From sequence record MK562504.1: 64,000 nucleotides of DNA. One strand, written 5' to 3'. This stretch comes from Enterobacteria phage CHB7. The notes beneath the pieces were generated by a model. The model ran no database searches. It had not been told where the DNA came from and saw nothing but the letters and a program-made list of their open reading frames with translations. The translations under genes and the position numbers were made by a program. How positions within the stretch are numbered: position 1 is the stretch's first letter; each line of letters opens with the position of its first letter. Shown here one piece after another: positions 1 through 63,245 of the stretch.

Positions 1-2367
1 TTAATCGAAAGCCTGAGTTCCTTCAGGGATGCACTTAACATCAAATCCTAAGAACTGACCAACTTCAACAGGACTTACTTTATTCCAGTCTAAGTTAGAA
101 AGCAAGAAGTTTTCTGCTTTACGTGCTGTGAAGTACACACTCAGTTTCTGCTTAATACGTTCTCTGGCATTGTAGATTGCAGAGTGTACCTTACTCTTAG
201 CTCTTGTCAAGCGTTGTAAGTCATGCAGAACACTTGTAACGTCCTTATAAGCAATCGGTGAAGCAACATAAGCCAGCTTACCAAACATTGCTTCTACAGC
301 CTCTTCATTCCCTTCCAAGAAGATACGTTTGCTGTAATCAGCACTGTAGACATAACCTCTTGAGCACTTCTTATCACCAAACTGGAACGTTCTGGCAATA
401 ACACCTTTATCAGTGATATCACAGTTTGAACTACACCATTCACGAGTTACAAAACGGTTAAACTCAATCCAGTGAATATCAGTGATAGAGTCTTTGAAGA
501 CTTGCTGATTCACTTCTAACCAGTCTTCAGGAATCTTCTTCCAGTTTGCTTTACGGAACACATAAACCGACTGTCCAGTTAAGCGTGCCATTACCTTTGC
601 AGCAGACTCTGGAGTGCAACTAAAAATTCCACCAAGGACTTCATCACTCTGTGCTTTGATATAGTACTGAGGTTCTTCAATATCATCAAAGTTCTCTTTT
701 ACTTCTGTATAAGATACACCGTGTTCATGTACAGAAGCTTTGTAGAGTTTTACAACACCACGAGTAACAGTACGCTTCACATAGTGATGCTCTTTGTCAG
801 ACATTTTAACAATCGTCAACATACTCTTATCAATCATGTGGAGATTAATAAACTGGTCTAACTCTTGCTCATCAGAGAACACATAAACAATACCGTTGTA
901 GCGACGGAAGTTCGGTTCTTCATTTTCACGGTCACGACAAGCGCCACGGATAATCTGATTGCGTCCTACAGTCTTTTCAGTACCATTTTTGTTTCGACGG
1001 TCATTGATAAGGAACAAATAGTTAGACATTTTGTTCTTACTCATTGCACCGAAGATACTGAAGTTCGCACCTTCCTGAGTGTACATCGCTGAAGTTGCAC
1101 GAATCTTATTTTCCAGTTGACTATACTTGAAGTAAGCAACAGGCTCATACAGATTCCCAATAACAGGAATGTGATTACCGCTCTTATCAACAAGCAAAGT
1201 TCCATTGTCATCAGTGGCAAACTTTGGAGTGCCATCTGCGTTACTCAACTGTCCTTGACGAATCTTTAAAAGTTTCTGCTCAAGGTCTGCTAAGCTCTGA
1301 CCATTCCACTCAAGACGGGTAAACACATGCTGGAAGATTTCACGAGAGTTAGCTCGTAAGTCTGCATAAGCCTGTGCAGCGTCTGCCAAGGTTGGTTCGT
1401 TGTCAATACGTTTTACTACATCTTCGACAATCGTCGCAGTAATCTTTTTAACTGCATCTGTAATTGCTTTCTTAGTGGTCTCATTCATCTGCAATGCTTC
1501 ACGAGACGCAGCGATAGCCACTGAACCAATCGGCATGTAGATGTTAACAAGGTCTACAGCATTACGGAAGAATGTAGGAAGAACACTGGTGAACTCTGCA
1601 CCAAGTAAATCTCCTAAGTCAACCGGATAAGCAATATTACCCATAACAACGTTGAAATTTGTCTGGTTATTACTTGAACGCCAGTTCTCTTTATACTTCA
1701 TCGCATCGTAAACACCATCTTCACGAACAATGGTAGTCATCTCGCTAAGGATATCACGGTATTCTACGTTGCATTCTGGTTTCAGTTTGAAGTAAGAGAA
1801 GACATTACTTGCTTCTTCATGAAACTTCTGGATACGATGGTCAGCTACTGCAACACGAACTGCTAAACCATTTGGTTCGGTAGTCGGGTTTGTCGTCAGT
1901 TTAGTAACTTGAGGAATACCATTCTCAAGGTATACAGAGTACTTGTTAACTACGCCGTCTACGTAGCTGGACACGGTGAATGACTGTGCAATTGCAAAAG
2001 GTGACTTTGAACCGATACCCATAGCACCGATGTAGTCGTTTGAGTCATTCTTAGTAGAAGCTCCATAGTTCAGGTACAGAGACATAACCTTCTCATGGGT
2101 CAGGCCAGTACCGAAGTCACGAACTTCAAAGTATGGGTCGAAACGAGTTGGCAGGTGTACACGGAATGGTACATCCTCTTTTCCAGCTTCTTTGTGAGTA
2201 TCTACAGCGTTACAAGACAACTCACGAATTACAGCACGTTCTTTAAAAGTGTAAACACCTGAACTTAACAGGCTGAACATTTCAGGAGTCATCGTAATAG
2301 ATGCCTGAGAAGTTTCTAATGAAGATGAACTCTTAATCACCTCTGCGTGGTCATTTACCATGCGCAT
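1..2367 (-). CDS. rIIA: rIIA-like GHKL (Bergerat-fold) ATPase, 788 aa
   Basis: Translation carries an N-box (ERAVIRELSCNAVD), G1 box (VRDFGTGLT) and G2 box (GAMGIGSKS) typical of HATPase_c domains; TAA stop at 1-3. Assignment to rIIA is by analogy with T4-like rIIA, from memory. Confidence 0.5.
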   Translation of the reverse strand: MRMVNDHAEVIKSSSSLETSQASITMTPEMFSLLSSGVYTFKERAVIRELSCNAVDTHKEAGKEDVPFRVHLPTRFDPYFEVRDFGTGLTHEKVMSLYLNYGASTKNDSNDYIGAMGIGSKSPFAIAQSFTVSSYVDGVVNKYSVYLENGIPQVTKLTTNPTTEPNGLAVRVAVADHRIQKFHEEASNVFSYFKLKPECNVEYRDILSEMTTIVREDGVYDAMKYKENWRSSNNQTNFNVVMGNIAYPVDLGDLLGAEFTSVLPTFFRNAVDLVNIYMPIGSVAIAASREALQMNETTKKAITDAVKKITATIVEDVVKRIDNEPTLADAAQAYADLRANSREIFQHVFTRLEWNGQSLADLEQKLLKIRQGQLSNADGTPKFATDDNGTLLVDKSGNHIPVIGNLYEPVAYFKYSQLENKIRATSAMYTQEGANFSIFGAMSKNKMSNYLFLINDRRNKNGTEKTVGRNQIIRGACRDRENEEPNFRRYNGIVYVFSDEQELDQFINLHMIDKSMLTIVKMSDKEHHYVKRTVTRGVVKLYKASVHEHGVSYTEVKENFDDIEEPQYYIKAQSDEVLGGIFSCTPESAAKVMARLTGQSVYVFRKANWKKIPEDWLEVNQQVFKDSITDIHWIEFNRFVTREWCSSNCDITDKGVIARTFQFGDKKCSRGYVYSADYSKRIFLEGNEEAVEAMFGKLAYVASPIAYKDVTSVLHDLQRLTRAKSKVHSAIYNARERIKQKLSVYFTARKAENFLLSNLDWNKVSPVEVGQFLGFDVKCIPEGTQAFD

Positions 2368-2430
2368 AATAACTTTCCTCTTGGGTTGTTTGATGCATAG
2401 ACTTTAAAGAACTCTGCACTGATTGTCAAA

Positions 2431-2607
2431 TTATTTCTTAAATCTTTTACCAGAACCTTCACAGAAAGGGCAACAGCCACTTCTGGTAAACCCATGACCA
2501 TCACAGTGTTCACAGCGTTCTGTTTCTACAAAGTATCTGACAATGACAAGAACAAATATTGCTATAATCCCCGTCGATAGGAGTAACTCTACCCAATAAC
2601 CTTGCAT
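2431..2607 (-). CDS. small membrane protein with DnaJ-type zinc finger (58 aa, not in ORF track)
   Basis: Hand translation gives MQGYWVELLLSTGIIAIFVLVIVRYFVETERCEHCDGHGFTRSGCCPFCEGSGKRFKK: one hydrophobic helix then two CxxCxGxG motifs. Overlaps the next ORF by 19 nt. Confidence 0.3.
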   Translation of the reverse strand: MQGYWVELLLSTGIIAIFVLVIVRYFVETERCEHCDGHGFTRSGCCPFCEGSGKRFKK

Positions 2608-2924
2608 AACTTCTCTCCAACATGTTTGTACAGTATGAAACTACGGTCATGAACAATACTTGAGGCAACTGCAAAGTTCTCTTCCAGTATTGCTTTGTTC
2701 GGATTATAGAATCCGTCTAAGAATTGGTCAAGTGCTAATTGGTGATTTTGTGGAAGACCTTTAACATAAATCTTCATAGAAAGCGTGGCAACCACTTCAC
2801 CTTGAAGTTCATCTCGTGCTGCTACCAAGATTTGGTTAATGAACTTGTGACCATCTTCAGGACGTTTAATGTCATCCCAATTCTCTTCCAAGACCATATT
2901 GATATTCATCTGTTTGATTTTCAT
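2589..2924 (-). CDS. hypothetical protein (111 aa)
   Basis: Intact ORF co-oriented with neighbours and tightly packed. Confidence 0.4.
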   Translation of the reverse strand: MKIKQMNINMVLEENWDDIKRPEDGHKFINQILVAARDELQGEVVATLSMKIYVKGLPQNHQLALDQFLDGFYNPNKAILEENFAVASSIVHDRSFILYKHVGEKLCKVIG

Positions 2925-3136
2925 AGAACCTCCACAATAAATTTTTTAAACTTTTTACGCAGCTTTCTGATTTGCTTTTTTGTAGGTTTTACACAAAATT
3001 GATAACTCTCAATAATAGCTTGTCTATCATCAGGCATGTCGGATTCTGTGAACCAAAGCACCCAATAAGATTCTTGATACCCTCCGAAACAACTTTGACT
3101 ACCAGCAGTGAAGTATAAATCTGTGTTGAACTCCAT
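2921..3136 (-). CDS. hypothetical protein (71 aa)
   Basis: ORF with 4-nt overlap to the downstream gene; sits just after a terminator hairpin. Confidence 0.35.
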   Translation of the reverse strand: MEFNTDLYFTAGSQSCFGGYQESYWVLWFTESDMPDDRQAIIESYQFCVKPTKKQIRKLRKKFKKFIVEVL

Positions 3137-3189: not shown

Positions 3190-5016
3190 TTAAAGCTGTC
3201 TGTCAATAACATTTCGTACATCACGAAGGTTAACGTAGCCATATGGCTGAGAGTCGCAGAATACCAGCTTCAGAGCACACTGAGGGTTATCCAGTACACT
3301 TTCAAACTCTGCAAAACCAAAGCCATCTACAGCTTCCAGCTTATCACCATCCCACATAGGGACTACACCACCAAAAGCCGACTTCTTAAGACCACTGTCA
3401 GTTTTAGGGTCTTTTGCCAGCATGATTTCTTCACCATCCATCTGTGCAAGAGTTGCTTTAACAGCAAATGCAAAGGTATCACGAGTCATGTACTGGTAAG
3501 TATATGAACCAACACCAAAGACAACGTTAGAACTTGCAAAGCCCTTTTCAGCAAGACGGCTAAGAATCTCTTCAGCACGTTCCAAAGTGATAGAATCACC
3601 GTAGATTAAACCAATGTGTTCATCAAGAACTTTGTAGCCTTTAGAGTTTACAGCGCCACCAAAGATGTTGTACAGAGTCTTGATAGCACCATCAATTTCT
3701 GCTGTCAGCATTGGTTTAACAACAACTTGACCAGTCTTGTAAGTATCTTTCAGGTTAACTGTGTCAGCAACGTTAAAGTCTTCTGCATCAACAACCAACT
3801 CATAACCTTCAGAGATTAGCCAAGCAGAGAAGCCATAGCCCATATCTGACATGTTACAATTAAGGATTGCATCAAGCAGATAAGTATTGTTAGGAGAAAT
3901 GGTTGACATGTGTTTGTAATACATACTCTTAGCATTTTCCCATTCAATTGCACGATAGCCAGTAACAATGTGTACAGGGTCACCGGAATCTGGACGGATT
4001 ACCAGTTTACCATCACGTTTCAGGATTACTTCACGGAGTTCTGGAAGAATCTCTGTAACTGTACGCCAGAAGTTGTAAGTATCGGACACAACACTTGTAA
4101 TACCAGTTGGGTAAACATCTACCAGCAGGTGTTCAAATGTTTTAACCTCACCACGCCAGCGTTTAGCATCCAGCAAACTATCAGACTGCATGATGTACTG
4201 TGAGTGGATATCATCTTCTGTCAGGTCTTTCATATTCCATGAAATGTTTGCACACATAACGGAATGTTCAGTTGCTGGAACAGAGTTACCAATATCACTT
4301 ACAGTCATAAACTGACCATATGCACGTTTAGCAGTATACACAGCAGGGAAGCTATCAGTTCCTTTAAAGCTGGTCAAGTGGCCTACAGTATTGAAAGCAT
4401 CATCGGTAAAGCCAGACATACCACGCATTGCAAAGTCATGACACTGCCAAGGAAGATGGAAGTCATTGTCACAGGTCTTGTCAGCCCAAGATTTACAGAT
4501 ACGTTTGTAGTGCAGTGCAATAGTTGCAATGGTACAAGCTTTCCAGATTTCAGCAGAGAAAGCATCTTCCAGATAACCAGCTACCCAATGGAAACCTTCA
4601 ACGGTATTTTTGAAGATAATCATTGGAACACGCATAGGAACAACTGTACCTTCTTCAACAGAGTACACTGCAACTGGCAGATAGCCTAAGTCGTGAAGTT
4701 CTTCCCAATGATGACGCTTGATAGCATCTGCACCAAGAACACCATTCATGATTTCTAAGATTTCATCAACAGCTTCTTTCTTATCACGTTCGAAGAAAGT
4801 TGCGTTCCAATGGTCTACTAAGTAATCTTTAACGAAACGTTGGATACCAAAAGCCACTACACCGTCAATTGCTAAAGGGCTGTTAAACCATTTATCACTA
4901 CGTGGTGTCAGGTTGAACATCAAGTATTCTGTTGCACTAGGATACTGGTAAACATGACCAGATTTGTAAGCATCTGCATTTAAACCTGCTGGTACTGCAT
5001 AAAGTGATTTAGTCAT
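3190..5016 (-). CDS. nadV: nicotinamide phosphoribosyltransferase family protein (NadV/Namat-like), 608 aa with C-terminal extension
   Basis: N-terminus (NADAYKSGHVYQYP) and overall layout match the NAMPT family; it is about 110 aa longer than a typical NadV. Confidence 0.8.
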   Translation of the reverse strand: MTKSLYAVPAGLNADAYKSGHVYQYPSATEYLMFNLTPRSDKWFNSPLAIDGVVAFGIQRFVKDYLVDHWNATFFERDKKEAVDEILEIMNGVLGADAIKRHHWEELHDLGYLPVAVYSVEEGTVVPMRVPMIIFKNTVEGFHWVAGYLEDAFSAEIWKACTIATIALHYKRICKSWADKTCDNDFHLPWQCHDFAMRGMSGFTDDAFNTVGHLTSFKGTDSFPAVYTAKRAYGQFMTVSDIGNSVPATEHSVMCANISWNMKDLTEDDIHSQYIMQSDSLLDAKRWRGEVKTFEHLLVDVYPTGITSVVSDTYNFWRTVTEILPELREVILKRDGKLVIRPDSGDPVHIVTGYRAIEWENAKSMYYKHMSTISPNNTYLLDAILNCNMSDMGYGFSAWLISEGYELVVDAEDFNVADTVNLKDTYKTGQVVVKPMLTAEIDGAIKTLYNIFGGAVNSKGYKVLDEHIGLIYGDSITLERAEEILSRLAEKGFASSNVVFGVGSYTYQYMTRDTFAFAVKATLAQMDGEEIMLAKDPKTDSGLKKSAFGGVVPMWDGDKLEAVDGFGFAEFESVLDNPQCALKLVFCDSQPYGYVNLRDVRNVIDRQL

Positions 5017-5061: not shown

Positions 5062-5943
5062 TCAATCAAGGTTTGCTACAGTAACTTGACCATAATGTGT
5101 TAAGCCACGGTCTTTAGCTTCCCCTAAAGAGTTTGTAGTGTAGATGTGGTCAATGCCATTGTCAAGAAGGTTTTCAACACCTTTAGAGAAGATACCATGT
5201 GTTACATAAAGCTCAACACGTTTTGCACCTGCTTCACGTAGGTGTTTAGCTGCCTCTACGAAGGTTCGACCACCATCACAGATATCATCAAGAATCATGA
5301 CGGTTTTATCGGTCAAATCAACATCGTCAAGGATTCGCATACCAGTGATTTCTCCAGTCTTAAGATTTCGCACCTTAGACATTGTGATATATGGTTTATC
5401 CACCTCTTTAGCAGTCTCTGCAATCTTCTTAGAAGCACCTGCATCTGGGGCTACTAAGTAATCAATTAGAGGGTCATTTGCATAGTGGACTGCAATCTCC
5501 TTTTGAGGAATACTCTGGAAGCAGTTAAACAGGTTATCTGGTACATAGCTGTGAGGGTCAACTGCACAGACTGCGCCAAACCCCATTGCATTAATCTGTT
5601 TAGCAAAAACCTTTAAAGCTGCTGCGTCACCTTTAAACATGTGACGGTCATATCGTGCATTTGGTAAGTAGTAAAATATGACAGTCTTTAAAGCATAATC
5701 ATGAGGAACTAAATCGTCAATTGCTTCTTTAGCCAGTGCCACAGCAAACAGTGTGTCTTTGTCATAACCCTTTACAATCATAACCACATTGTTAATAGAT
5801 GATGCTGCATAAGCAGTAAAATCAACAAGCTCTTGTGAAAAGTGGCCACCAATCTCACCAGAAGGGAATTGGATGATGTTAAACTCTTCTTCATGAGTTC
5901 CTTTAGTCGGTGAATGAATTGTGACACGGATAGATGTTTTCAT
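5062..5943 (-). CDS. ribose-phosphate pyrophosphokinase family protein (Prs/Adps-like)
   Basis: Phosphoribosyltransferase PRPP-binding motif (VMILDDICDGGRTF) and Prs-like architecture. Start is probably the internal ATG at 5943 (MKTSIRV); the track ORF runs to 5958. Confidence 0.75.
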   Translation of the reverse strand: MKTSIRVTIHSPTKGTHEEEFNIIQFPSGEIGGHFSQELVDFTAYAASSINNVVMIVKGYDKDTLFAVALAKEAIDDLVPHDYALKTVIFYYLPNARYDRHMFKGDAAALKVFAKQINAMGFGAVCAVDPHSYVPDNLFNCFQSIPQKEIAVHYANDPLIDYLVAPDAGASKKIAETAKEVDKPYITMSKVRNLKTGEITGMRILDDVDLTDKTVMILDDICDGGRTFVEAAKHLREAGAKRVELYVTHGIFSKGVENLLDNGIDHIYTTNSLGEAKDRGLTHYGQVTVANLD

Positions 5944-5954
5944 AGTTTTCTCTC

Positions 5955-6233
5955 TCAATCAAAAGTTACGTTTGTTACTGCCATTGCAGATTTGCATTTT
6001 ACAGGGTCTACAACGTGGTAAAGTACACTACAGTTACCTGTGCTGTCTGGTACAGGCTTTACCCATTGCTGCTTTATAGTTGGCTCTCCTAAGTCTTTGT
6101 AAGAACCATCTGTAAAGTTGTTTACCATCTCAAGTGCAATTGGTTCTGGAACATGACCACGTATCATGTACATCTCACAACCATTACCTCCTTCACTGAC
6201 TAATGGTAAAATCTCCCACTTTTCTTTAGCCAT
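5955..6233 (-). CDS. hypothetical protein (about 92 aa)
   Basis: ORF whose ATG (MAKEKW) overlaps the upstream stop by 8 nt, suggesting translational coupling. Confidence 0.4.
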   Translation of the reverse strand: MAKEKWEILPLVSEGGNGCEMYMIRGHVPEPIALEMVNNFTDGSYKDLGEPTIKQQWVKPVPDSTGNCSVLYHVVDPVKCKSAMAVTNVTFD

Positions 6234-7709: not shown

Positions 7710-8157
7710 ATTCTTTTCTCCAAAGGTTTTGGTTATCAGAACCACGATACGGTTTGTTCGTTGGTTTAGAAGCATCATACTTACCATCAATCACCACGTC
7801 AACATATTTCATCACTTCATGGTGAATTTTTTGGTGAAGCTGGAAACCTGTCCAAAGCCAGATAGATTTCTCTGGATAATGCTCTTTAACAGTCTTGCAG
7901 ATATACGCTACAGTGTCAATGTTTCGTTCTTCTAAAGGTTCTCCACCTAACACTGAGAATCCTTCTATACCTTCATCTTTCAACATAGCTAAGATATCAG
8001 CCATATCAAAATCAGTAAACTCTTTACCTGCATTGAATTTCCAAGATTCTTTGTTGAAACAACCTTCACAGTGATGTTTGCAACCAGCTACAAAGATACT
8101 TACACGAGCACCTTCACCATTAGCTGTATCAAATCCTCGAATTTCCATAAAATTCAT
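7672..8157 (-). CDS. nrdG: anaerobic ribonucleotide reductase activating protein (radical SAM)
   Basis: CxxxCxxC radical-SAM cluster motif (CKHHCEGC) near the N-terminus; about 160 aa; next to nrdD. Confidence 0.8.
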   Translation of the reverse strand: MNFMEIRGFDTANGEGARVSIFVAGCKHHCEGCFNKESWKFNAGKEFTDFDMADILAMLKDEGIEGFSVLGGEPLEERNIDTVAYICKTVKEHYPEKSIWLWTGFQLHQKIHHEVMKYVDVVIDGKYDASKPTNKPYRGSDNQNLWRKEYGWQGDCQWRAE

Positions 8158-8552
8158 TCTACTACCTCCACTTCAATCTTCTCATAAGACATAACATATT
8201 CTGGACAGTGTTTGTAAATGAAGTCTTGCAAGATTTTACTATCTTGTGCATCAGTCATCAAGGCTACATACTTAGGATTCATCTTCTGAATGTAGCTGTA
8301 GAATGAGATATCACCAATCTCAGTTCCCCAATCATCGTCCCAAGTACCTGTTATGATAATGATTTTATCAAGTAACCAATCAGGAACTACTAAGTTTTCA
8401 TCCTCCTTGATTGAGTCAATGAGTTCTTGAGTTATGGTAAGTTCACTGGTTAGGTAAAAACTGGAACCACGACGATGCTCTTTCTCACACTTTCCATCAT
8501 CTAACGTGCATTCCTTCAACACTTCCATTAACGCTTTGGAGATTTTAAACAT
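8154..8552 (-). CDS. hypothetical protein (132 aa)
   Basis: Intact ORF with 4-nt overlap to nrdG. Confidence 0.4.
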   Translation of the reverse strand: MFKISKALMEVLKECTLDDGKCEKEHRRGSSFYLTSELTITQELIDSIKEDENLVVPDWLLDKIIIITGTWDDDWGTEIGDISFYSYIQKMNPKYVALMTDAQDSKILQDFIYKHCPEYVMSYEKIEVEVVE

Positions 8553-8706
8553 TTTAACTTTCCTCTTAAGTCACAATAAAGGAGTCCTAGAAAGAACCCT
8601 AGTGAGATAGAACCGATGAATAAACCAATTATGTTCTCTGCCATATCTAACATCCAATAAAAAGGTGATGCAAGCCTATCAAGACCTACACCACCTTGTC
8701 AACTAC

Positions 8707-9162
8707 TTACTTAAACCTACAACAATCTTTGTGGAGTTCCTTTCTCAGTTTCTTCATAAAATCAACAGCTTCCTCAAACTTTTCAAATCTTCTTGAAACC
8801 GTTTTCTTGTTATATGTTACTGAAGCTCTCCATCTTCTTCTTGTAGAGTCCCAAGATACACCTTTAAATCCAGTTTTGTTATCCTCTCGCAATTTAGCAT
8901 TGCAAGCATTGTCAACTTTGTTAGAGGCTCTTAGGTTTATCCACCTGTTATCATCCTTGATACCATTTATGTGGTCTACTAATTCAGGAGCATCTTCACC
9001 CATCAAAGTGAAAGCTAATCTATGAGCATACTGTTTTGAACCATCTGGTAGTTCAATTAGTATGTATCCACTAGTTATCCTGCTTCCAGCCACATCTCCA
9101 CTATCTTTCCATCTTATCTCCCCATTATCCGGGTTATAGTCAAGAAAATTAGCTACATACAT
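8707..9162 (-). CDS. HNH homing endonuclease with AP2-type DNA-binding domain
   Basis: HNH core (AHRLAF...VDHINGIKDDNRWINLR) followed by an AP2-like segment (GFKGVSWDSTRRRWRA). Confidence 0.7.
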   Translation of the reverse strand: MYVANFLDYNPDNGEIRWKDSGDVAGSRITSGYILIELPDGSKQYAHRLAFTLMGEDAPELVDHINGIKDDNRWINLRASNKVDNACNAKLREDNKTGFKGVSWDSTRRRWRASVTYNKKTVSRRFEKFEEAVDFMKKLRKELHKDCCRFK

Positions 9163-11294
9163 ACTCTGTCCTTAATTTCTGCAATTTTTGCATCATTCAT
9201 TCTTGAAGTACCTTTTATTTTAGTCCACCCAAGATAACCACAAACACGATTGATAACTGAAATGTCATGTGAATGGCACTTAGGGCACTCATCAACATCT
9301 TCGTTAGGTCTATGTCCACAATTTTCACAGATTGCTAAGTCAAAGTTAACACCTTGATAGAAACCTTTACCCATACCTCGTGAGACACAAGCACTAATAG
9401 CTTTTTTGTTCTCTGGGTTTGCCATTCTAGAGTAAATGATGTGACCACCATTACAGCTATGGAATAAAGGTTCTTCCAAGTCTTGCTTCTGATATGGAGT
9501 AATATCTGCTGCAACGTTCATATGGAAGCTGTTAGTGAAATACTCTTTATCGGAAACATCTTTCACAACACCGAACATGTTACGGAACTGCTTCAATTGC
9601 GTCCCACAAAGGCTCTCAGCAGGTGTACCGTAAAGGGCATACAAGAAGCCATCTTGCTCTTTAAAGTGCGCCAGACGGTCATTCAGGTAGTCCAGAACTT
9701 GCTGTGCAATCACTTTCTGAGATTCATGTAGTCTACCTTCCCCAGCTAGTACAGAGAGTTCATCAAGTGCAGTTACACCGAAAGAAGCTGTGAAGGATTT
9801 CACAGTATCCCAACCAATTTTATCAGTTGGTTTCTTACCCCCTTTGTACAGGCCACCTTGTGTAAATGCCAGAGGGTTTGAACTTGCTGGCATGTTAGCA
9901 ATCATCTCATAGCGTTTCTTATGGAAGCTGCGAATCATTTCAAGGTATTTGTCAAGCTCTTTCCAGAAGTCTAAGCCGTTCTCTTTAGCATACTGGTAAA
10001 TCATTGGCAAGTTCAAAGATACTGCACCAATATTTGCACGACCAACGTAGAACTCTTCCCCGTTTTCGTCATAGTATGGAGACAGGAAAGCTCGACAACC
10101 CATCGGTGAAATCACCTTACCAGAACGTTCAAAAGCTTCTGCAACAGCACCATGACCAGATACACTCAAGAAGTCTGGGTACATCGCTTTAGAGCAACAC
10201 TCAATAGCTTTATTGTACAGTTGGCCTTGACAGATATCTTCACTGTGTCTTGTATGGTCATGAATGTAAACCAATTTAGGGAACACAACAGGTTTCTTGT
10301 TCTTACCTTGACCATTCATACGAACATCAAGAATAGTGTTTGCAATCATGTACTGAAGACGGTTATCTTCATCAGCCATATCTGAACCAAGTAAACCAAA
10401 TGTTAAAGTTGTGAATGCAAAGTCACCACGGCTGCAAGGTACAGTGTTCAGCTTCATCTCCAGTGACTGGAAACCTTGAGTTAGTTCAATCTGTAACTGT
10501 TCCATTACATAGTTGTAGTAATGTTCTTTGGGAATCCCATAAGAAGTTGCTTTCTCAGCATGGTAACGTAGAGACTTCTTAGCGTATGGCACAAGAATCT
10601 TGTCAATCTCTGGGATTGTAAAACCACCAAATTGCTGTGCAGTTGCTGACAATACAACATCACCGATAACCTGTAAAGCTGACAGAACAGACTTCGGTTC
10701 ACAGTACTCAATACCAGACATTTCAAAGCCACCTTTCAGGACTTTACCAATGTCAAATAGGCAACAGTTAATCCCACCAAATACCAAATCTCTCAGGTCG
10801 TGAATGTAGATGAAACCTGCCTCAATAGCTTCAAGTTCTTCTGGTGTCAAGTGATATTGCTTAAAGATTTCTTTAGTCAGGTATCCACGAATGATAGAAC
10901 CTTTTGTAGAGATTAAGCTACTGTCAAAGTTAGCATTCTCACGGTCACCTAAGAAGAGGGTGTCTTTAGTCTTCTGATAGAGTTCATCCCAATTCTGTGC
11001 AACTTCTTTACGGTAGTTACGGTAGGTTGAGTAAGATTCGTAAATCTCGTGATTAACTTCTGCTAAAGCCCCTTCAACAATACTGTGAATGTCATCTACA
11101 GAAATCAGTAAAGCATTCTGGTTAGAAGCCTTTACAAGAATCCGCATAAAAGCTGACTCAAGAGCATGAACAACTTCTAACGGGAGTTCTTTATAGCCAA
11201 CTCGGTTAGCTGATTTTGTAACTGCTGCTAGGACTTTCTTAATATCTGGTTCTTCAAGTGAGCCATTCTTTTTAATAATTTGTACTTTGACCAT
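9153..11294 (-). CDS. nrdD: anaerobic ribonucleoside-triphosphate reductase (class III)
   Basis: ATP-cone N-terminus, C-terminal glycyl-radical motif (RVCGY) and zinc-ribbon cysteines. Start reassigned to ATG at 11294 (MVKVQII), preceded by an AAGGAG ribosome-binding site. Confidence 0.85.
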   Translation of the reverse strand: MVKVQIIKKNGSLEEPDIKKVLAAVTKSANRVGYKELPLEVVHALESAFMRILVKASNQNALLISVDDIHSIVEGALAEVNHEIYESYSTYRNYRKEVAQNWDELYQKTKDTLFLGDRENANFDSSLISTKGSIIRGYLTKEIFKQYHLTPEELEAIEAGFIYIHDLRDLVFGGINCCLFDIGKVLKGGFEMSGIEYCEPKSVLSALQVIGDVVLSATAQQFGGFTIPEIDKILVPYAKKSLRYHAEKATSYGIPKEHYYNYVMEQLQIELTQGFQSLEMKLNTVPCSRGDFAFTTLTFGLLGSDMADEDNRLQYMIANTILDVRMNGQGKNKKPVVFPKLVYIHDHTRHSEDICQGQLYNKAIECCSKAMYPDFLSVSGHGAVAEAFERSGKVISPMGCRAFLSPYYDENGEEFYVGRANIGAVSLNLPMIYQYAKENGLDFWKELDKYLEMIRSFHKKRYEMIANMPASSNPLAFTQGGLYKGGKKPTDKIGWDTVKSFTASFGVTALDELSVLAGEGRLHESQKVIAQQVLDYLNDRLAHFKEQDGFLYALYGTPAESLCGTQLKQFRNMFGVVKDVSDKEYFTNSFHMNVAADITPYQKQDLEEPLFHSCNGGHIIYSRMANPENKKAISACVSRGMGKGFYQGVNFDLAICENCGHRPNEDVDECPKCHSHDISVINRVCGYLGWTKIKGTSRMNDAKIAEIKDRVCM

Positions 11295-11310
11295 TTGTGC
11301 TCCTTTGTAT

Positions 11311-11334
11311 ACGAAAAAGGTCTCCGAAGAGACC
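11311..11334 (-). terminator. intrinsic terminator
   Basis: Hairpin GGTCTC-CGAAGA-GACC with adjacent A-run; a near-identical hairpin recurs at 15425. Confidence 0.5.
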
Positions 11335-11340
11335 CTTATA

Positions 11341-11547
11341 TTAATTCTTTTTGAAAATCTTCTCAACAAACTTTTTGAGTTTGCCGCTAATGTCAAGATG
11401 GATTTCTAGAATCTCAAAGATTACCCATACTAGCATAGCACCAAACAAAGCACCTTGTTTGATATCAATAAATAGGTTCACAAAGAAGAAACCGAGTACA
11501 ATCATCGGTGCATCAACTGTGAAACCTTCCCACAAACGCTTAAGCAT
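11341..11547 (-). CDS. small hydrophobic membrane protein (68 aa)
   Basis: Translation is dominated by hydrophobic stretches (VLGFFFVNLFIDI, FGAMLVWVIF). Confidence 0.35.
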   Translation of the reverse strand: MLKRLWEGFTVDAPMIVLGFFFVNLFIDIKQGALFGAMLVWVIFEILEIHLDISGKLKKFVEKIFKKN

Positions 11548-11782
11548 TGTTCACCTCTTCCATAAAGTCTTGTAGTGTACCAACCGGAGTCAGGACAGTA
11601 TCTTCGGTCTTCATAATGAACGGCATCTGACGAACTGGCATCTTTGCAATATCAATCAGGTCTGACAGTTCATAATCCTGTCCTAACATTCTTACAATGT
11701 GGTCAATACCACGAGCCTTCGCAAAGTTCTTTGCAGTTTCACACTGAGGGCAACCAGTTTTGGAGTAAATTACGTAAGTCAT
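11540..11782 (-). CDS. glutaredoxin/NrdH-like redoxin
   Basis: CPQC active-site motif at the N-terminus of an 80-aa protein within the nrd cluster. Confidence 0.7.
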   Translation of the reverse strand: MTYVIYSKTGCPQCETAKNFAKARGIDHIVRMLGQDYELSDLIDIAKMPVRQMPFIMKTEDTVLTPVGTLQDFMEEVNNA

Positions 11783-12855
11783 TAAGGAACCTCTAAATAT
11801 CCTGAGTTTAAATCATCTACAACGGTATTCAACAAGTACGCACCGTTTTGCTGTTCTTGGTTAGCATTCTGCTCTTTATCAATTTCCATCTTCTTAATCA
11901 TATATTTCAAAGGTGGTTCTTTAGGAGCTACGAAGTCTCTTGGAATACCAAACATATCATACAATGGTGCAGCATTATAGTAAACCCACTCATGTAGAAG
12001 TTTTGTATTCAAACCAACTACGGCACGACCCTCAGAGAAAATATAATAAGACCATTTCTCTTCACTTTCAACTACTTCATCAAGAATTACTTTGATTTCT
12101 GGAAGAACCTGACGGAAAGCTTCTTGCCATTCTTCATCTTTCAAAGTCTCTTTCAGTGCTTCAATGTCAATCTTCGTGTGAAGGATTTCATCAAGCATAA
12201 TTTTCTGTACTGCCTGAGCAATACCTTGGAACTTATCTTGTGCATCAAGTGCAAAGGTACATGCAAAGGATGCCATAAAGGATACACCTTCCAAGGCAGT
12301 TACTGCAAAGAGACCTTTCAAAATTACTTTGTGAAAGTGTAAAGGGTCTTTCTCAAGCAGTGAATCACGAACATAACTTAGACGATAGTTGATACCTTCG
12401 TCAAGTAATTCTTCCAGTGCTCTGTTCACAGTCTTCAGACGGTCTTGTACAGCAGCATTCTGGTTAATCTCATCAAGGATTGTTTCAGGATTCTTAATAC
12501 ACTGACGAACAATCTCTGAATAAGTTAAGGCATGAAGGTTCTCAATTTCAGATTGCTTCATAATTGCCGTTGCGTAGATATCATCAGAGATGAATGGTGC
12601 AAAAGCAAATGCCAAACTCTTAGCAACCTGTGTATCAGCTTCCCACTGCCACTTAAGAATCTCAAGCATTACACCAGACATTGATTCTGGAACACTTTCA
12701 AAGTCTAACCGTGACTGCTCAAACGGGAACTCATCTTCAGACCAGTCTTGTGCTTTCTGCTGTTTGTACAGTTCAAAGATTTTTGGATAGTGTTTGTTGA
12801 GTGAGTCAAAAGTTTTTCGCTCACCACCTAAAAAGATTGGATGTTGGTTAATCAT
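11782..12855 (-). CDS. nrdB: ribonucleotide reductase small subunit (class Ia beta)
   Basis: Length of 357 aa and position between nrdA and the redoxin; helical, ferritin-like composition. Confidence 0.8.
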   Translation of the reverse strand: MINQHPIFLGGERKTFDSLNKHYPKIFELYKQQKAQDWSEDEFPFEQSRLDFESVPESMSGVMLEILKWQWEADTQVAKSLAFAFAPFISDDIYATAIMKQSEIENLHALTYSEIVRQCIKNPETILDEINQNAAVQDRLKTVNRALEELLDEGINYRLSYVRDSLLEKDPLHFHKVILKGLFAVTALEGVSFMASFACTFALDAQDKFQGIAQAVQKIMLDEILHTKIDIEALKETLKDEEWQEAFRQVLPEIKVILDEVVESEEKWSYYIFSEGRAVVGLNTKLLHEWVYYNAAPLYDMFGIPRDFVAPKEPPLKYMIKKMEIDKEQNANQEQQNGAYLLNTVVDDLNSGYLEVP

Positions 12856-13127
12856 AATGGTAGGTTTCCTGTTTCATAAAATTCTCTGGCTTCTGACGCT
12901 GTTAAAACTTGCCAACGGTCAACTTTAAACATGTCAAGAGACCTTGCATAAGTGTTGCTTGGGTTGAAGCAGTCAATATAACGAAGATGCTCTTTCCAAG
13001 AACCATCTGGCATTTTAACTTTCAGGTGATAGTCTGCAATATAATATAGAGACTCCCTTGGAATATAATACAGATACAAAGCACAGTTTGGTTCTCTGTT
13101 CCTTGCATCTTGAATGAGTTCTAACAT
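12852..13127 (-). CDS. hypothetical protein (91 aa)
   Basis: ORF between nrdA and nrdB with 4-nt overlap to nrdB. Confidence 0.4.
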   Translation of the reverse strand: MLELIQDARNREPNCALYLYYIPRESLYYIADYHLKVKMPDGSWKEHLRYIDCFNPSNTYARSLDMFKVDRWQVLTASEAREFYETGNLPL

Positions 13128-13133
13128 GGTTTC

Positions 13134-13155
13134 TCCAAAAGGGGCTTTACAGCCC
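13134..13155 (-). terminator. intrinsic terminator-like hairpin
   Basis: GGGGCT-TTAC-AGCCCC with flanking A/T runs, between nrdA and the 91-aa ORF. Confidence 0.35.
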
Positions 13156-13164
13156 CCTATTTAG

Positions 13165-15399
13165 TTAAACTCCGCAACCTTCACAGTAAGCGTCTTGGAG
13201 TGCTGACTTACCAACACCAATACGACTGTTAAGGTAGTACATAGTTTTCATCCCAACTGAGTTAGCATAAATCATGTACTTCAAAGCTTGCTCTAATGAT
13301 ACTTTTTTCGATTTTGAATAGTCAACATAGAAATCTGAAGAGATAGCTTGACCAGTGAATTTTTGAACAATTGCATAGCAATCAATCATATCAAATGTGT
13401 CAATATCCCAAGCAATTTCATAGACATACTTCAACTCTTCGTAATCTGGAACGATAAACAGGACGTTACCAGTAGCTGACTTCTTGGTTAAAATGAAGTC
13501 ACGAATTGGGTACAAACCATTTGTCGTATTAGTTGCCAGTGAAGAACTCTCATTAGGCATGTAAGCCTCAAGTACAGAGTTTCTGATACCACCATTTGCT
13601 TTAATACGGTCTGCTAAGTCATCCCAATCATAACGAAGTTTTGCATCGTGTTTCGTATCAATCTTCCTGTTAGCTGTCTTCGGAGGAACCCAACCTTCAG
13701 GATACTTGGTGAACTTCATATATTCAGGTACACCACGCTCTTTTGCAAGTCTTAGTGAAGCCTCATGCAGATAGTAAGAGTGCATCTCTGCAAGTTCATG
13801 TAGCTTCGTTTTACCTGCTCTTGAAGAATAGTTCACGTAGTTCTTCGCAAGGTAGTGAGCCACATTCGTAAGGCCAATCCCAACAGAACGACGTTTCTGA
13901 ACGTGGTTACGCATTGACGGATACGGATAGTCCATAAGGTCAATAACGGAGTCAACCATTGCAAGAGCATAATAAGCAACGTCAGCGTATTCATCTTCTG
14001 TGATTCTCCCTGCTACCAGACTAGCCAAGAAGCAAAGAGCAACTTCACCATCTTCTTTAGGTGATGTGTAACTGTAAAGGTCACGTTCATCTTCAAACCC
14101 GTGAACTGGCAGTATAATTTCCATGCACAAGTTAGACATTTTCAAAGCTTCTTTAAACGGTGTGTGTGTGTTCGCATTGTTCGTAAAGAACGGATACACA
14201 CGACCTGTGGCATAACGTTGCTGGATGAACAGCTTGGCAACTTCACGAGCCTTAACACGTTTATGCTTAACACCTGAATGAACTGCGTGACCAACTGCCA
14301 TAGCAAACTCATCAGCAGATGCTGTGTAGAACATATCATAAAGCTTTGGAGCGTCCTTGTAAGAGAACAGCAACCAATCTGTGTCATACTGTACACACTG
14401 CCAGAAATAGTCATTTGCACCAAATGAATAGTCCATCTCATTAATACGCTTAGAAGGAACCGTTGTAGGGTGCTTCAAACGTAGTAAATCTTCAATCTGC
14501 GGGTCTAGGGCAGTGTAGAAGTTGTTAGCTGAACCACCACGACTCTTCTGTTTATTGGCCTCTACAGCAGCACGTACAAGTTTGTAGTAAGGAAGCTTAC
14601 CCATGTGTTCAATGGTGTTTTGACGAATACCATCACCAATTGTACGGGTCTCCATCAGCATACCAATACCAGCTTGCTTCGTGGTCATATCATAAGCTAC
14701 CTTAGTAGCAATGCCAAGAGACTCAGCAGTGTCATTAGCCTTGATTAAGCAGCATGACGCATAACCTGACTTAGTAGCACGTAAACCATTCAGATAAGGC
14801 GTAGGAGCGTTAATCTTCAGGTCAGACAGGTAAGTGTACAGCTTGATAACATCTTCCAGTCTACGGTGCTTGGGTTGTCTCTCAAAGGCTTTCATAGCCA
14901 TACCCATAAACATAAACTGTGGAGACTCAAACAGACGACCTGACTTGATATCTCGGATACCATATTTGTCACGGAACTGCTTCAGTACTGCGTAACCGTA
15001 AGAGATATCTTTTGAGTGAACAATGTGACCTTGTAAATAGTCAATTTCTTGTTCGGTGTAATCCATGTGCTCCCACAAACCCATTTGCTCCATCTTCATA
15101 ACGAAGTTGAACAGTTGAGGAACTTTTGTGAAACCACCAAAGGCTTCTTTGTAGATGATACCAAGGAGTAATCGACCAGCCATATCAGAGTACTCTTGAG
15201 TCTGCTTATCAATACAAACGTCAATCATAGCTTGGTGCATCTCTTTGGTAGAGCAACCTTCATAAACACGCTTCATGGCTTCCATAGTTACTTCTGACCA
15301 AATGATTCCTCGTTTGTCAGCCCATGAAGCCCATTTGTTTAAACGTTCTGGTTCGAATGGCACGATTGTACCGTCAGATTTGCGAATGGTCTTAATCAT
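13165..15399 (-). CDS. nrdA: ribonucleotide reductase large subunit (class Ia alpha)
   Basis: 744 aa with N-terminal ATP-cone (IKTIRKSDGTIVPFEPERL) and a C-terminal cysteine pair (CEGCGV). Confidence 0.85.
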   Translation of the reverse strand: MIKTIRKSDGTIVPFEPERLNKWASWADKRGIIWSEVTMEAMKRVYEGCSTKEMHQAMIDVCIDKQTQEYSDMAGRLLLGIIYKEAFGGFTKVPQLFNFVMKMEQMGLWEHMDYTEQEIDYLQGHIVHSKDISYGYAVLKQFRDKYGIRDIKSGRLFESPQFMFMGMAMKAFERQPKHRRLEDVIKLYTYLSDLKINAPTPYLNGLRATKSGYASCCLIKANDTAESLGIATKVAYDMTTKQAGIGMLMETRTIGDGIRQNTIEHMGKLPYYKLVRAAVEANKQKSRGGSANNFYTALDPQIEDLLRLKHPTTVPSKRINEMDYSFGANDYFWQCVQYDTDWLLFSYKDAPKLYDMFYTASADEFAMAVGHAVHSGVKHKRVKAREVAKLFIQQRYATGRVYPFFTNNANTHTPFKEALKMSNLCMEIILPVHGFEDERDLYSYTSPKEDGEVALCFLASLVAGRITEDEYADVAYYALAMVDSVIDLMDYPYPSMRNHVQKRRSVGIGLTNVAHYLAKNYVNYSSRAGKTKLHELAEMHSYYLHEASLRLAKERGVPEYMKFTKYPEGWVPPKTANRKIDTKHDAKLRYDWDDLADRIKANGGIRNSVLEAYMPNESSSLATNTTNGLYPIRDFILTKKSATGNVLFIVPDYEELKYVYEIAWDIDTFDMIDCYAIVQKFTGQAISSDFYVDYSKSKKVSLEQALKYMIYANSVGMKTMYYLNSRIGVGKSALQDAYCEGCGV

Positions 15400-15418
15400 T
15401 ATTTTAGAGTCCTACAGG

Positions 15419-15442
15419 TGAAAAAGGGTCTCCGAAGAGACC
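15419..15442 (-). terminator. intrinsic terminator
   Basis: Hairpin GGGTCTC-CGAA-GAGACCC with adjacent A-run. Confidence 0.5.
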
Positions 15443-15451
15443 CATTAGAGA

Positions 15452-15787
15452 TTAAATGCTAAAGATTTGTTTACTTTGCCAAAGTTCATAGAACTTGTGA
15501 GAAACCTTAGTCAGTGAAGCTTTTGACATTGCGTTGCAGTACCACCAACGTTTAGTTTCATCAAACAGTTTTTCAAGGTCTTCGTGCAGGTTGTCTTCCA
15601 TTCGTGAAATAACAAAGTTACCACGCTTCTTACCAGTAACACGACCAAACTTGATATCACTTCGCCCTTTACAATCCTCTGTGTACATCACTATGTCACC
15701 GAACCGTAAAGGTTTGTCAAACTTATCTACTCCAAGTTCAACGCCAGCTTTTACATCTTCAATTGTAAGCTTATTTGTTTTAGACAT
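15452..15787 (-). CDS. hypothetical protein (111 aa)
   Basis: Intact ORF. Confidence 0.4.
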   Translation of the reverse strand: MSKTNKLTIEDVKAGVELGVDKFDKPLRFGDIVMYTEDCKGRSDIKFGRVTGKKRGNFVISRMEDNLHEDLEKLFDETKRWWYCNAMSKASLTKVSHKFYELWQSKQIFSI

Positions 15788-16112
15788 GATATTTATCCAA
15801 GCTTCGTTTCAGGTAAAGCCACCCATCATCAGTGCGCTCAACACCCATGAACAGTGGAGCCGTTACAACCTTTCCAAACGTATTGCGATGTTGACAAATC
15901 TCATAAGAGTATGTCTTCTCAATGTTCAGGCCATATTTAAAAAGCACTGCTTTCAAGACCTGTTCATTATCCAGTAAAGTTTCTGGTGTCTCTCCATATT
16001 TTACTAACAGTGAATCATTCATAAACACTGTCATAGAGAGATTATAGTTTGAGAAATGGCTCTTTGGAGCCACCTCTTCAGTATTAATGTTCTGTGAATC
16101 CATTATAACCAA
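15780..16112 (-). CDS. hypothetical protein (110 aa)
   Basis: Intact ORF overlapping neighbours by a few nt. Confidence 0.4.
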   Translation of the reverse strand: MVIMDSQNINTEEVAPKSHFSNYNLSMTVFMNDSLLVKYGETPETLLDNEQVLKAVLFKYGLNIEKTYSYEICQHRNTFGKVVTAPLFMGVERTDDGWLYLKRSLDKYHV

Positions 16113-16839
16113 CCCCTTTTAACCAATTCTTCAGGTTATTTGCATCATAGTTCAGTTTCGGGTATGAGGTCACATGGAACTTCTCACCGTCATAGTAAAC
16201 AATATCTGCAAGCCATAATCCGTTTTCTCGGCAGAAGTCTTTGTCTGCTTTCGAACTGATTGGTCGAACTTCTGTGAAGTCACTCAATCCAAGGTCTTTC
16301 AAACTTCCTAAAAGACCTTTACAGATAACGCATGTGTCAGATGTTACCACGAACAATTCTTTGCTTTCAAGTTCCGCGATGAACTCTGCAAGCTGTACTT
16401 TAGGAAGATTAGACTGCTTCATAATCTTCTTATCAGATTCACGTACAATGGCGTACCATTCTTTTCCGTCAATCATTGAAGCACGTACACGACATTCATC
16501 TCCAGTACGCTTCTCGATATCTGCAAGACGCTTCAAAGCTTCCTCATAGTTATCGGTATATTTCAGGTTGTTATTCTCACAGACTGCCCTCATAGCCCCA
16601 TCATGGTCATGCTGTGAAAGGTAAATCAGTCCATCAAGAACATACTGTAAATCTGCCTGAGCATCAAGAGCCTCAATAGGGTCTTTTTCATCAACAGCTT
16701 TCAAAAGCTCTTTGGCTTCTTCTAACATGCAAAGTGCTTGACTACGCATTGAAGACCAGTACTCAGTTGTGTAAGGAGTCAACGGGGTATTCCCACAACG
16801 CTGATTCCAAGTTAAAACGGATTCTCTGGAATTAAACAT
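16084..16839 (-). CDS. hypothetical two-domain protein; possible thioredoxin-like C-terminal half
   Basis: 251 aa; helical N-terminal half and a CxxC motif (CVIC) in the C-terminal half. Fold not established. Confidence 0.3.
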   Translation of the reverse strand: MFNSRESVLTWNQRCGNTPLTPYTTEYWSSMRSQALCMLEEAKELLKAVDEKDPIEALDAQADLQYVLDGLIYLSQHDHDGAMRAVCENNNLKYTDNYEEALKRLADIEKRTGDECRVRASMIDGKEWYAIVRESDKKIMKQSNLPKVQLAEFIAELESKELFVVTSDTCVICKGLLGSLKDLGLSDFTEVRPISSKADKDFCRENGLWLADIVYYDGEKFHVTSYPKLNYDANNLKNWLKGVGYNGFTEH

Positions 16840-17066
16840 TAAACCTCCTGAAACAGTTTCTGCTGAGACTCAATATAATCCAGTCGGCCTTTCAGTTCAA
16901 CACGTTTGTTAATCAGGTGCTGAATCTGGGACTCAAGAGCCTCCATTTCGGACTCCGTAGCTTCTTTAGCTTTGATGATTGCATCTTTAAGTGCTGCAAT
17001 GTGGCTGTCAATCTTAGCTACGTGGTCATTCTTCAGTTTGTTAAACATAATCTTATTCTCTCTCAT
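16839..17066 (-). CDS. hypothetical coiled-coil protein (75 aa)
   Basis: Heptad-like charged/hydrophobic pattern. Confidence 0.35.
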   Translation of the reverse strand: MRENKIMFNKLKNDHVAKIDSHIAALKDAIIKAKEATESEMEALESQIQHLINKRVELKGRLDYIESQQKLFQEV

Positions 17067-17553
17067 TAAGTTTCATGATTTTATGGATTCTCTTCTCAGC
17101 ATCTTCATAAGTCTCTTTAGTCAGAAACTTGATTGCTGCAATGTTTGCATTGTAGAAGAGTCGAAGCTTGGAGTCAATCCTTTTTGTCATGACGTCAAAC
17201 TTATGTTGGAGGTTAGCTTCTCCGTAGACCAACCCACCTCGCGTATAATAAGTTTGCACAATATAGAAGTCAAACTCTTTTTCACCGAAAGTTTCAATAT
17301 CTTTCTTAATGTATTCAGAAGAGGTCTGGTAAACCATCCAGTCACTCTCTTTTGTCACAATCTTTCGTCTGGTCTTTCCAGCTACTTTCTTCTTGGTGAC
17401 ATTGTTAAACTGCTTCTTACCGATGTAATACTGTCCAGTCTTTTTGCAGTACACTAAGTAAACGAAACCAAAATACTTAGCGGGGTCAATCTCCCCGCAC
17501 AGTGAAATCCAATGTCCATATTCAGGGCAATTGCCAAAACCTTTAATCTTCAT
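17053..17553 (-). CDS. GIY-YIG-like endonuclease (putative)
   Basis: FVYLVYCKKTGQYYIGKK resembles a GIY...YIG core; placement about 30 aa from the N-terminus is atypical. Confidence 0.4.
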   Translation of the reverse strand: MKIKGFGNCPEYGHWISLCGEIDPAKYFGFVYLVYCKKTGQYYIGKKQFNNVTKKKVAGKTRRKIVTKESDWMVYQTSSEYIKKDIETFGEKEFDFYIVQTYYTRGGLVYGEANLQHKFDVMTKRIDSKLRLFYNANIAAIKFLTKETYEDAEKRIHKIMKLNERE

Positions 17554-18074
17554 TCATAAGCTTCTCCGTGATTTACAAACTCTCTATGGAGTTCTTCTCT
17601 TCTCTTTATGATGGCTTCTTTAGCCTCATCAATGGTCTCAAATGCACCGATGAAATGTGTTACACCATGTACCATGATTCTTGCTCTCCACTTCTTGGAG
17701 GCTTTGTTAAATGATACACCTTTCACACCGGATGTGTTATTTGAGTGGGTTTTTCTATTCCAGCTATTCTCAGCTTGGGTACACACTCTTAAGTTTTCAC
17801 GGCGATTGTCATCTGTTAACCCGTTACGGTGGTCTACACGTTCCGGTAAGAAACCATCAGTGTAAAGGATTGCTAAATCATGAGCCATATAAGCTTTCCT
17901 TTTGATGGTGATTCTGATGTAGCCTCTGTCATGAGGTGAACCAGCTACTGAACCAACAATAGTCCTGTTAGCAGATTTCTTAAGCCAAGTAAAGACCCCT
18001 GTATCGGGGTCATAATGCAGGTATTCTTTAAGAGTCTTCTGCGTTAACATTTGGAGTCCACCCATACTTTTCAA
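17550..18074 (-). CDS. HNH homing endonuclease with AP2-type domain
   Basis: YDPDTGVFTW N-terminal signature, HNH core (VDHRNGLTDDNRRENLR), AP2-like GVKGVSFNKASKKWRA. Confidence 0.7.
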   Translation of the reverse strand: MKSMGGLQMLTQKTLKEYLHYDPDTGVFTWLKKSANRTIVGSVAGSPHDRGYIRITIKRKAYMAHDLAILYTDGFLPERVDHRNGLTDDNRRENLRVCTQAENSWNRKTHSNNTSGVKGVSFNKASKKWRARIMVHGVTHFIGAFETIDEAKEAIIKRREELHREFVNHGEAYE

Positions 18075-19086: not shown

Positions 19087-19090
19087 TACG

Positions 19091-19119
19091 AAAAAGCCCC
19101 ATACTAAGTACAGGGCTTT
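19091..19119 (-). terminator. intrinsic terminator-like hairpin
   Basis: AAGCCC-loop-GGGCTT hairpin with adjacent A-run. Confidence 0.35.
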
Positions 19120-19136
19120 GTAGTAACTACTGAGAA

Positions 19137-19988: not shown

Positions 19989-20074
19989 TCTTAAATCCTC
20001 TTTCTCAAAATTATTTCTTTCAAACTTGAAGGAGTACAATCTTACAGACTTCATACTCCCTTGTCAAACACTTT

Positions 20075-20211
20075 TAAGCAGATTTTTTAGCTGCTTTACG
20101 TTCCGTCTTACCAGTGCGAACACGTTTTGCTTCATAGTATGCCGCAGATTTACCAGCAGTTGCTTTCAGTGAATCGCCAAATACTTTTTCAAACGCTTTA
20201 GAATGTTTCAT
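20075..20211 (-). CDS. small basic protein (44 aa, not in ORF track)
   Basis: Hand translation MKHSKAFEKVFGDSLKATAGKSAAYYEAKRVRTGKTERKAAKKSA; its ATG overlaps the upstream stop (ATGA). Confidence 0.25.
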
Positions 20212-22458: not shown

Positions 22459-22642
22459 CTCTGCGTTGTAGTTCTGCTTTCAAACCATTTTCAATCTTGT
22501 CTAGCTCGTGAATCTCTTCTGCAATCTCTTTCCGTCTTGAAGCAACCCTTTCAAGTCGCTCCATCATAACTTCTTTGGAAAGAGATGAGAGTTCCACCGA
22601 ACGATGGTCAACAACTTCTAAATTATTTACTCTCATCTTCAT
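22445..22642 (-). CDS. hypothetical protein (65 aa)
   Basis: Small ORF, charged and helical. Confidence 0.3.
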   Translation of the reverse strand: MKMRVNNLEVVDHRSVELSSLSKEVMMERLERVASRRKEIAEEIHELDKIENGLKAELQRRGANV

Positions 22643-22647
22643 CTCTC

Positions 22648-24255: not shown

Positions 24256-24256
24256 A

Positions 24257-63243: not shown

Positions 63244-63245
63244 AT

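Follow-up and report, generated by a model that had tools for sequence, protein, structure and literature searches.

Which protein is encoded at the first edge of the 64,000-nucleotide stretch of DNA from Enterobacteria phage CHB7 (record MK562504.1; this whole stretch is hereafter the window), and by what means could it act during infection? The initial annotation, made from the DNA letters alone, had proposed a large GHKL ATPase of 788 residues resembling rIIA. Taken as a whole, our results are best explained by an rIIA gene orthologous to known ones, carried by a virulent coliphage of the genus Suspvirus (Ounavirinae, Felix O1-like), and we consider this assignment very probable. The proposed protein corresponds indeed to a single intact open reading frame (ORF) with its own expression signals (see below), which takes up positions 1..2367 on the minus strand, running from an ATG at 2367 to a TAA at 3..1 and encoding 788 amino acids; given the base composition of the window (40.6% G+C), the chance probability of 788 open codons is ~1e-23. 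All features of the gene described below lie on this strand.

The PHROG 612 profile ('RIIA') aligns through positions 1–712 of its 725 with residues 1–766 of the protein (E 9e-182), and T4 rIIA is aligned with positions 1–724 of the same profile. Both proteins follow PHROG 612 colinearly from one end to the other, which places the CHB7 protein in one full-length profile family with T4 rIIA. A direct BLASTP comparison with T4 rIIA yields 32% identity over residues 23–320 (E 6e-40). Relatives are present in 2925 records of the phage collection, and the closest ones are annotated rIIA proteins from seven records, corresponding to six phages (PC79-13, EcSzw-2, EcSzw_1, mistaenkt, SUSP2 and EP1), which are 96–98% identical over the full length; the SUSP1 protein is 73% identical and colinear, with two gaps, and those of Felixounavirus are ~67% identical. 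The rIIA reading is thus borne out by the full-length match to PHROG 612, common to T4 rIIA, together with the near identity to annotated Suspvirus rIIA. PC79-13, mistaenkt and SUSP1, the latter a genus-mate of SUSP2, are classified in their records as Suspvirus, Ounavirinae (Felix O1-like myophages), and over its first 8 kb the window shares gene order and 87–92% DNA identity with the close relatives. In fact, the gene is already known, since phages that are nearly identical carry it under the annotation rIIA, and the same-genus orthologue of SUSP1 has already been tested.

We have analysed the conservation of the ATPase module in an alignment of 63 homologues, with identities as low as 22%. 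The complete Bergerat-fold signature recognised earlier is confirmed, with all boxes in place and their key residues invariant. The GHKL ATPase domain comprises residues ~28–195 (1783..2286), its C-terminal boundary being approximate, and contains the N box E49-LSC-N53-AV-D56 (2200..2223), the G1 box D84-F-G86-T-G88 (2104..2118) and the G2 box or ATP lid G114-AM-G117-I-G119-S-K121 (2005..2028). E49, N53, D56, D84, G86, G114, G117, G119 and K121 are invariant in the 63 sequences, and G88 is kept in at least 90%; the N-box residues of GHKL enzymes provide the catalytic base and a Mg2+ ligand. Beyond the boxes, G243, Y247, G281, R289 and E290 are invariant as well, the last two forming part of the ASREAL loop of a second, transducer-like domain (residues ~196–325; 1393..1782) which ends in a long helix (residues 296–322). 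Being located in the loop just before this helix, R289 is by its position a candidate gamma-phosphate sensor. The only Pfam domain family to recur among the 63 homologues is HATPase_c_3, which 23 of them match at E≤0.01.

The AlphaFold2 model computed from the 63-sequence alignment has a mean predicted local distance difference test score (pLDDT) of 86.4, with values below 50 only for residues 1–24 and 533–536. In structure comparison, 260–280 of its residues align at a root-mean-square deviation of 3.7–4.1 Å with the two-domain ATPase modules of MORC2/3, the 43 kDa ParE structure, the ATPase of phage T6 topoisomerase II and the N-terminal domain of MutL, the identity to the matched GHKL structures being 11–14%; Hsp90-type chaperones are equally good structural matches as the DNA enzymes. 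As modelled, the first ~325 residues are an ATPase module of the GHL/MORC type, with a Bergerat fold followed by the transducer-like domain.

An alternative is that the gene is mislabelled and encodes instead a cellular GHKL protein (type II topoisomerase B subunit, MutL or Hsp90/HtpG) or a MORC-type defence ATPase. A partial 41-bit match to the HSP90-family model and a weak PADLOC match to TmtA (residues 25–134) go in that direction; however, the cut-off of the HSP90-family model is 455 bits, far above the observed score, and the middle and C-terminal domains of Hsp90/HtpG were not found. The Pfam domains Toprim, DNA_gyraseB, DNA_mis_repair, MutL_C and HSP90 are absent from the protein and from its 63 homologues, which speaks against a type IIA topoisomerase subunit (GyrB/ParE/gp39), a candidate for which the C-terminal half moreover has no match in the PDB, and likewise against MutL/MLH. 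Also, the identity to those structures is only 11–14%, the C-terminal 463 residues match rIIA proteins only, and the genome around the gene is that of a virulent phage, with rIIB as its neighbour in all close relatives. No topoisomerase or MutL profile covering the full length, the outcome that had been named beforehand as contradicting rIIA, was found, and only the first ~300 residues resemble those ATPase modules in fold. A MORC-type or other GHKL defence ATPase was rejected as well, the match to defence models being weak and partial and the context that of a phage, not of a defence island. What is left of the earlier remark on MORC/Paris-like defence contexts is this weak TmtA match, which is restricted to the ATPase part; the PARIS ATPase is of the ABC type, not GHKL. 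Altogether, a mislabelled cellular or defence protein is extremely improbable, and the assignment to rIIA is retained in what follows.

The ATPase domain is preceded by an N-terminal arm (residues 1–27; 2287..2367), in which S14, T19, A22 and T27 are invariant in 24 full-length relatives and I24 is found in 95% of the 63 sequences, the pLDDT being below 50 for residues 1–24. Since this segment is conserved in sequence yet unfolded in the model of the monomer, it is a candidate for the N-terminal 'strap' that is exchanged in GHL dimers.

The C-terminal half (residues 326–788, 463 amino acids; 4..1392) presents a different picture, as it is predicted with confidence (pLDDT 90.6) and is specific to rIIA. 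It contains a conserved patch, F604-R-K606-x2-W609-K-K611-I-P613-E-D-W616. When aligned alone with PHROG 612 it covers positions 315–713 (E 3e-34), and when 1.84 billion representative proteins were searched by phmmer, 12 clusters (at 50% identity) were returned, all composed of rIIA-length proteins or their fragments. Against predicted viral structures, Foldseek likewise matched the C-terminal half to rIIA proteins only, the T4-like ones being those of KVP40 (4e-12), 44RR2.8t (1e-7) and the 'RIIA-RIIB' fusion of RB43 (1e-8), with low template-modelling scores (0.2–0.3) that would be expected for flexible multi-domain models. Among solved structures no relative of this half was found in the PDB. 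A sequence search of the PDB with the protein returned only chance annexin matches (E 0.35). The pairwise BLASTP alignment with T4 rIIA does not extend into this half. A profile-profile comparison of the full-length protein with the T4-type alignment did align columns 14–604, but this is not evidence for the C-terminal half, because the halves compared alone gave a poor score (see below). We tentatively suggest, from the model, that the C-terminal half may contain domains without a solved counterpart, bind rIIB and set the range of abortive-infection systems that is neutralised (RexAB, QatABCD, others), with the N-terminal module serving as an ATP-gated dimerisation switch; this is a possibility to which we give clearly less than even weight. 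If true, a compact and well-predicted orthologue such as this one would be a good entry point to the 70-year-old question of how rII acts.

A genuine rIIA is expected to have an rIIB partner, which the initial annotation expected just outside the window on the same strand. That annotation gave no strand for rIIA; with a minus-strand gene, the place in question is downstream of rIIA, beyond coordinate 1. The expectation holds for PC79-13, mistaenkt and SUSP1, in which the rIIA stop is followed after 79 bp, in the same orientation, by the start of an rIIB gene encoding 369–375 amino acids, and for CHB7 itself the rIIB gene would fall beyond the window. An exact-sequence look-up of the CHB7 protein in the protein collection and a 42-mer scan of IMG/VR, both made to read past position 1, returned no match. 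PC79-13 is 94% identical in DNA to window positions 1–2926. The rIIB proteins of the relatives are 35% identical to T4 rIIB over essentially the whole length (E 7e-61) and match rIIB PHROGs, and no transmembrane segment was found in them. The first base of the window is precisely the last one of the rIIA stop, in keeping with the convention, given in the Felix O1 genome paper (PMC3185647), by which genomes with rII genes are opened at rIIA. The source record therefore probably ends at this edge of the window, with rIIB at its other end. In several related records rIIA is located at positions 4–2373.

Two further observations concern the relation between both proteins. Phage RB43 has a 1049-residue protein (BFVD Q56C47) named 'RIIA-RIIB membrane-associated', and PHROG 609, with 1055 positions and labelled RIIB, is matched by rIIA at 31–299 and by rIIB at 755–1047. 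These cases suggest that natural rIIA-rIIB fusions exist, and the RB43 fusion and the mixed PHROG 609 argue for rIIA and rIIB working as one complex. In respect to rIIB itself, residues 7–50 of the T4 protein (L005:1466-2404) give several near-threshold matches to helix-turn-helix (HTH) families, the HTH_7 match scoring 23.6 bits against a cut-off of 23.8, and the PC79-13 protein (L001:9447-10556) gives a faint HTH match (E 0.048), so that rIIB, as judged from these profiles, resembles a helix-turn-helix protein at its N-terminus.

The function of the orthologues has been addressed in several studies. Knockdown of rIIA or rIIB in T4, MM02, EdH4, SUSP1 and N4, which for SUSP1 was done by CRISPRi-ART, lowers plating on hosts carrying lambda RexAB and leaves it unaffected on E. 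coli without Rex (PMC11879866). In T4, transposon insertions in rIIA/B suffer depletion in the presence of RexAB but not otherwise, and the rIIA/B genes of Bas37 matter in clinical isolates (bioRxiv 10.1101/2025.11.20.689424). The rIIA/B genes of the Felixounavirus Bas63 (genes 85/84) were reported as needed against QatABCD (bioRxiv 10.1101/2024.10.10.617714). RexB has been described as a membrane channel activated by RexA (PMC11077077). Expressed alone, rIIB is toxic, and it sets off a CARD-gasdermin system by itself.

These phenotypes bear on the literal meaning of the database names, according to which rIIA would be a 'lysis inhibitor' taking a direct part in the timing of lysis by holin and antiholin. 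What favours this role is the names themselves ('RIIA lysis inhibitor') and the PHROGs category 'lysis'; yet the label goes back to the rapid-lysis plaques of the early studies, the orthologues are needed conditionally, on hosts that carry a defence, and show no defect on naive ones, and rIIA is found among early and anti-defence genes, away from those for lysin and spanin. A direct role in lysis timing is accordingly held to be quite improbable, if slightly less so than a mislabelled cellular protein.

For a counter-defence rIIA, the following mechanism can be proposed. The protein would be made early, from a sigma-70-type promoter, would bind ATP and would dimerise through its N-terminal GHKL domains by exchanging the conserved N-terminal arm; dimerisation with arm exchange is the working mode of Hsp90, MutL, GyrB and MORC proteins. 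Slow ATP hydrolysis would act as the conformational switch of rIIA, the rIIA-specific C-terminal half would hold rIIB, and the resulting complex would keep membrane-directed abortive-infection systems from firing, possibly through a block of the effector at the inner membrane or concealment of the infection signal.

A distinct scenario is that rIIA acts on DNA, as an ATP-gated clamp like those of MORC, MutL or topoisomerase II, recruited by the N-terminal HTH of rIIB and hiding or remodelling phage DNA-protein intermediates which are sensed by sensors of the RexA type. The best compact structural matches (3.7–4.0 Å over 250–275 residues) are indeed DNA-acting GHKL modules (MORC2/3, T6 topoisomerase II, ParE and MutL), the near-threshold HTH matches of T4 rIIB agree with such recruitment, rIIB has been termed a transcription-factor-like protein (PMC7824862) and RexA is a DNA-binding protein (PMC11077077). 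However, the HTH signal of Suspvirus rIIB is very weak, neither profile nor structure searches recognised a DNA-binding domain in the C-terminal half of rIIA, and exclusion is lost in RexA mutants with opposite DNA-binding defects, which leaves DNA binding as the trigger unsettled (PMC11077077). We regard action on DNA as a real but minority possibility.

A number of results weigh against the assignment to a functional rIIA of the kind just described. HATPase_c_3, the Pfam family matched by residues 48–163, scores 23 bits, below its cut-off of 25. When the C-terminal halves alone were compared with the T4-type alignment by hhalign, the E-value was 0.21, so that what would tie this half to T4 rIIA is the PHROG 612 profile, which probably has Felix O1-like members, and the Foldseek similarity only. 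A tblastn search of the window with the rIIB of a relative detected no rIIB-like sequence (E >5), the window ending at the rIIA stop. No transmembrane segment was found in rIIA, the maximum hydropathy being 1.43, and any association of the protein with the membrane must therefore be peripheral or via partners. Also, a role of this gene against RexAB or QatABCD would be one carried over from its orthologues, and ATP hydrolysis, dimerisation and binding between rIIA and rIIB are properties that we infer from the fold class.

In respect to expression, a Shine-Dalgarno sequence, AAGAGGAAA, is located at 2374..2382 with 6 nucleotides between its end and the rIIA ATG, and is kept in the relatives. 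Further upstream, at 2401..2429 (reading from 2429 to 2401 on the minus strand), there is a sigma-70-like promoter candidate, TTGACA-17-TAAAGT, with 10/12 matching positions, whose -35 hexamer is the same in the window, in PC79-13, in mistaenkt and in the diverged SUSP1. As the promoter scan of the rIIA upstream region overall evidenced no enrichment over shuffled sequences, the weight of this candidate comes from conservation only. A terminator-like hairpin at 27..12 is weak and lies within the rIIA coding sequence, and plus-strand ORFs of 50–75 amino acids within rIIA have no support; both were taken as chance.

Directly upstream of rIIA is a 58-residue ORF (2431–2607, minus strand; PHROG 3931) with one strongly hydrophobic N-terminal helix (hydropathy 2.54) and the motifs CEHCDGHG and CPFCEGSG, which are two CXXCXGXG zinc-finger repeats of the DnaJ type (Pfam DnaJ_CXXCXGXG, 17.8 bits, below the cut-off). 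In PC79-13, mistaenkt and SUSP1 the corresponding place is taken by a hypothetical coding sequence of ~60 residues, the likeness being one of position. From its sequence, the product of the 58-residue ORF has the appearance of a very small zinc-finger protein anchored in the membrane. Two more small conserved ORFs follow, at 2589–2924 (111 residues; PHROG 4262) and 2921–3136 (71 residues; PHROG 2375), both on the minus strand, and beyond them lies a gene pair of the NARP1 type, composed of a NAMPT-like gene of 608 residues (3190–5016, minus strand; Pfam NAPRTase and NAMPT_N) and a gene of 298 residues resembling phosphoribosyl pyrophosphate synthetase (5062–5958, minus strand; Pfam Pribosyltran and Pribosyl_synth). 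The small ORFs are separated from the NAMPT-like gene by a strong terminator-like hairpin at 3178–3155 (10 pairs, then TTTT) and by the promoter-like element TTGACA-16-TATTAT at 3206–3179. With this anti-defence pair lying 0.8 kb upstream of rIIA, counter-defence genes are clustered at this genome end.

Elsewhere in the window, the region 8000–24300 contains long minus-strand ORFs which, by comparison with PC79-13, mistaenkt and SUSP1, correspond to genes for anaerobic and aerobic ribonucleotide reductase and other functions of nucleotide metabolism; some relatives carry homing-endonuclease genes where the window has none, from which it follows that this region varies by insertions. At the opposite end, 21 transfer RNA genes are clustered within ~5 kb (58936–63982, minus strand), as is typical of Felix O1-like phages, in what is a virulent phage genome.

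The rIIA of CHB7 is a routine orthologue and this copy brings no new biology by itself. The rIIA/rIIB pair is nevertheless a classic locus: it acts against more than one abortive-infection system, and in turn a gasdermin system of bacteria senses it. What is mildly new concerns rIIA in general, namely the full two-domain GHL/MORC-like module with its invariant Arg-Glu loop and the C-terminal half without a solved relative. Together with the N-terminal arm, conserved yet unfolded in the monomer model, these offer small, testable pointers to the mechanism of rIIA.

Comparison with known systems places the CHB7 protein closest to the rIIA of other Suspvirus phages (SUSP2, PC79-13, EcSzw-2, mistaenkt, EP1 and also SUSP1), with which it shares length (788–790 residues), neighbouring genes and the region of the promoter and ribosome-binding site, the 96–98% identical proteins differing from it by a few percent of residues. 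Bas63 (Felixounavirus JohannRWettstein) belongs to the same subfamily and has the same neighbourhood, with NARP1 as genes 79–80 and rII as genes 84–85, but the defence reported as countered by its rIIA/B is QatABCD, not RexAB. T4 rIIA (NP_049616, 725 residues), the prototype of PHROG 612, has identical N, G1 and G2 boxes, shares the SREAL motif and likewise has rIIB as its next gene downstream, in the same orientation, the T4 pair spanning the ends of its record; in contrast, it belongs to the Tevenvirinae rather than the Ounavirinae, the CHB7 protein is 63 residues longer, and the C-terminal halves cannot be aligned pairwise. In respect to the GHL/MORC modules (Hsp90/TRAP1, MORC2/3, SMCHD1, GyrB/ParE/topoisomerase II and MutL), CHB7 rIIA differs by lacking Toprim, the endonuclease/dimerisation domain of MutL, the C-terminal domain of Hsp90 and the coiled coil and CW finger of MORC. 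The invariant residue of its second domain is the arginine of the ASREAL loop, which may play the part of the lysine of GyrB and MutL or of the arginine of Hsp90.

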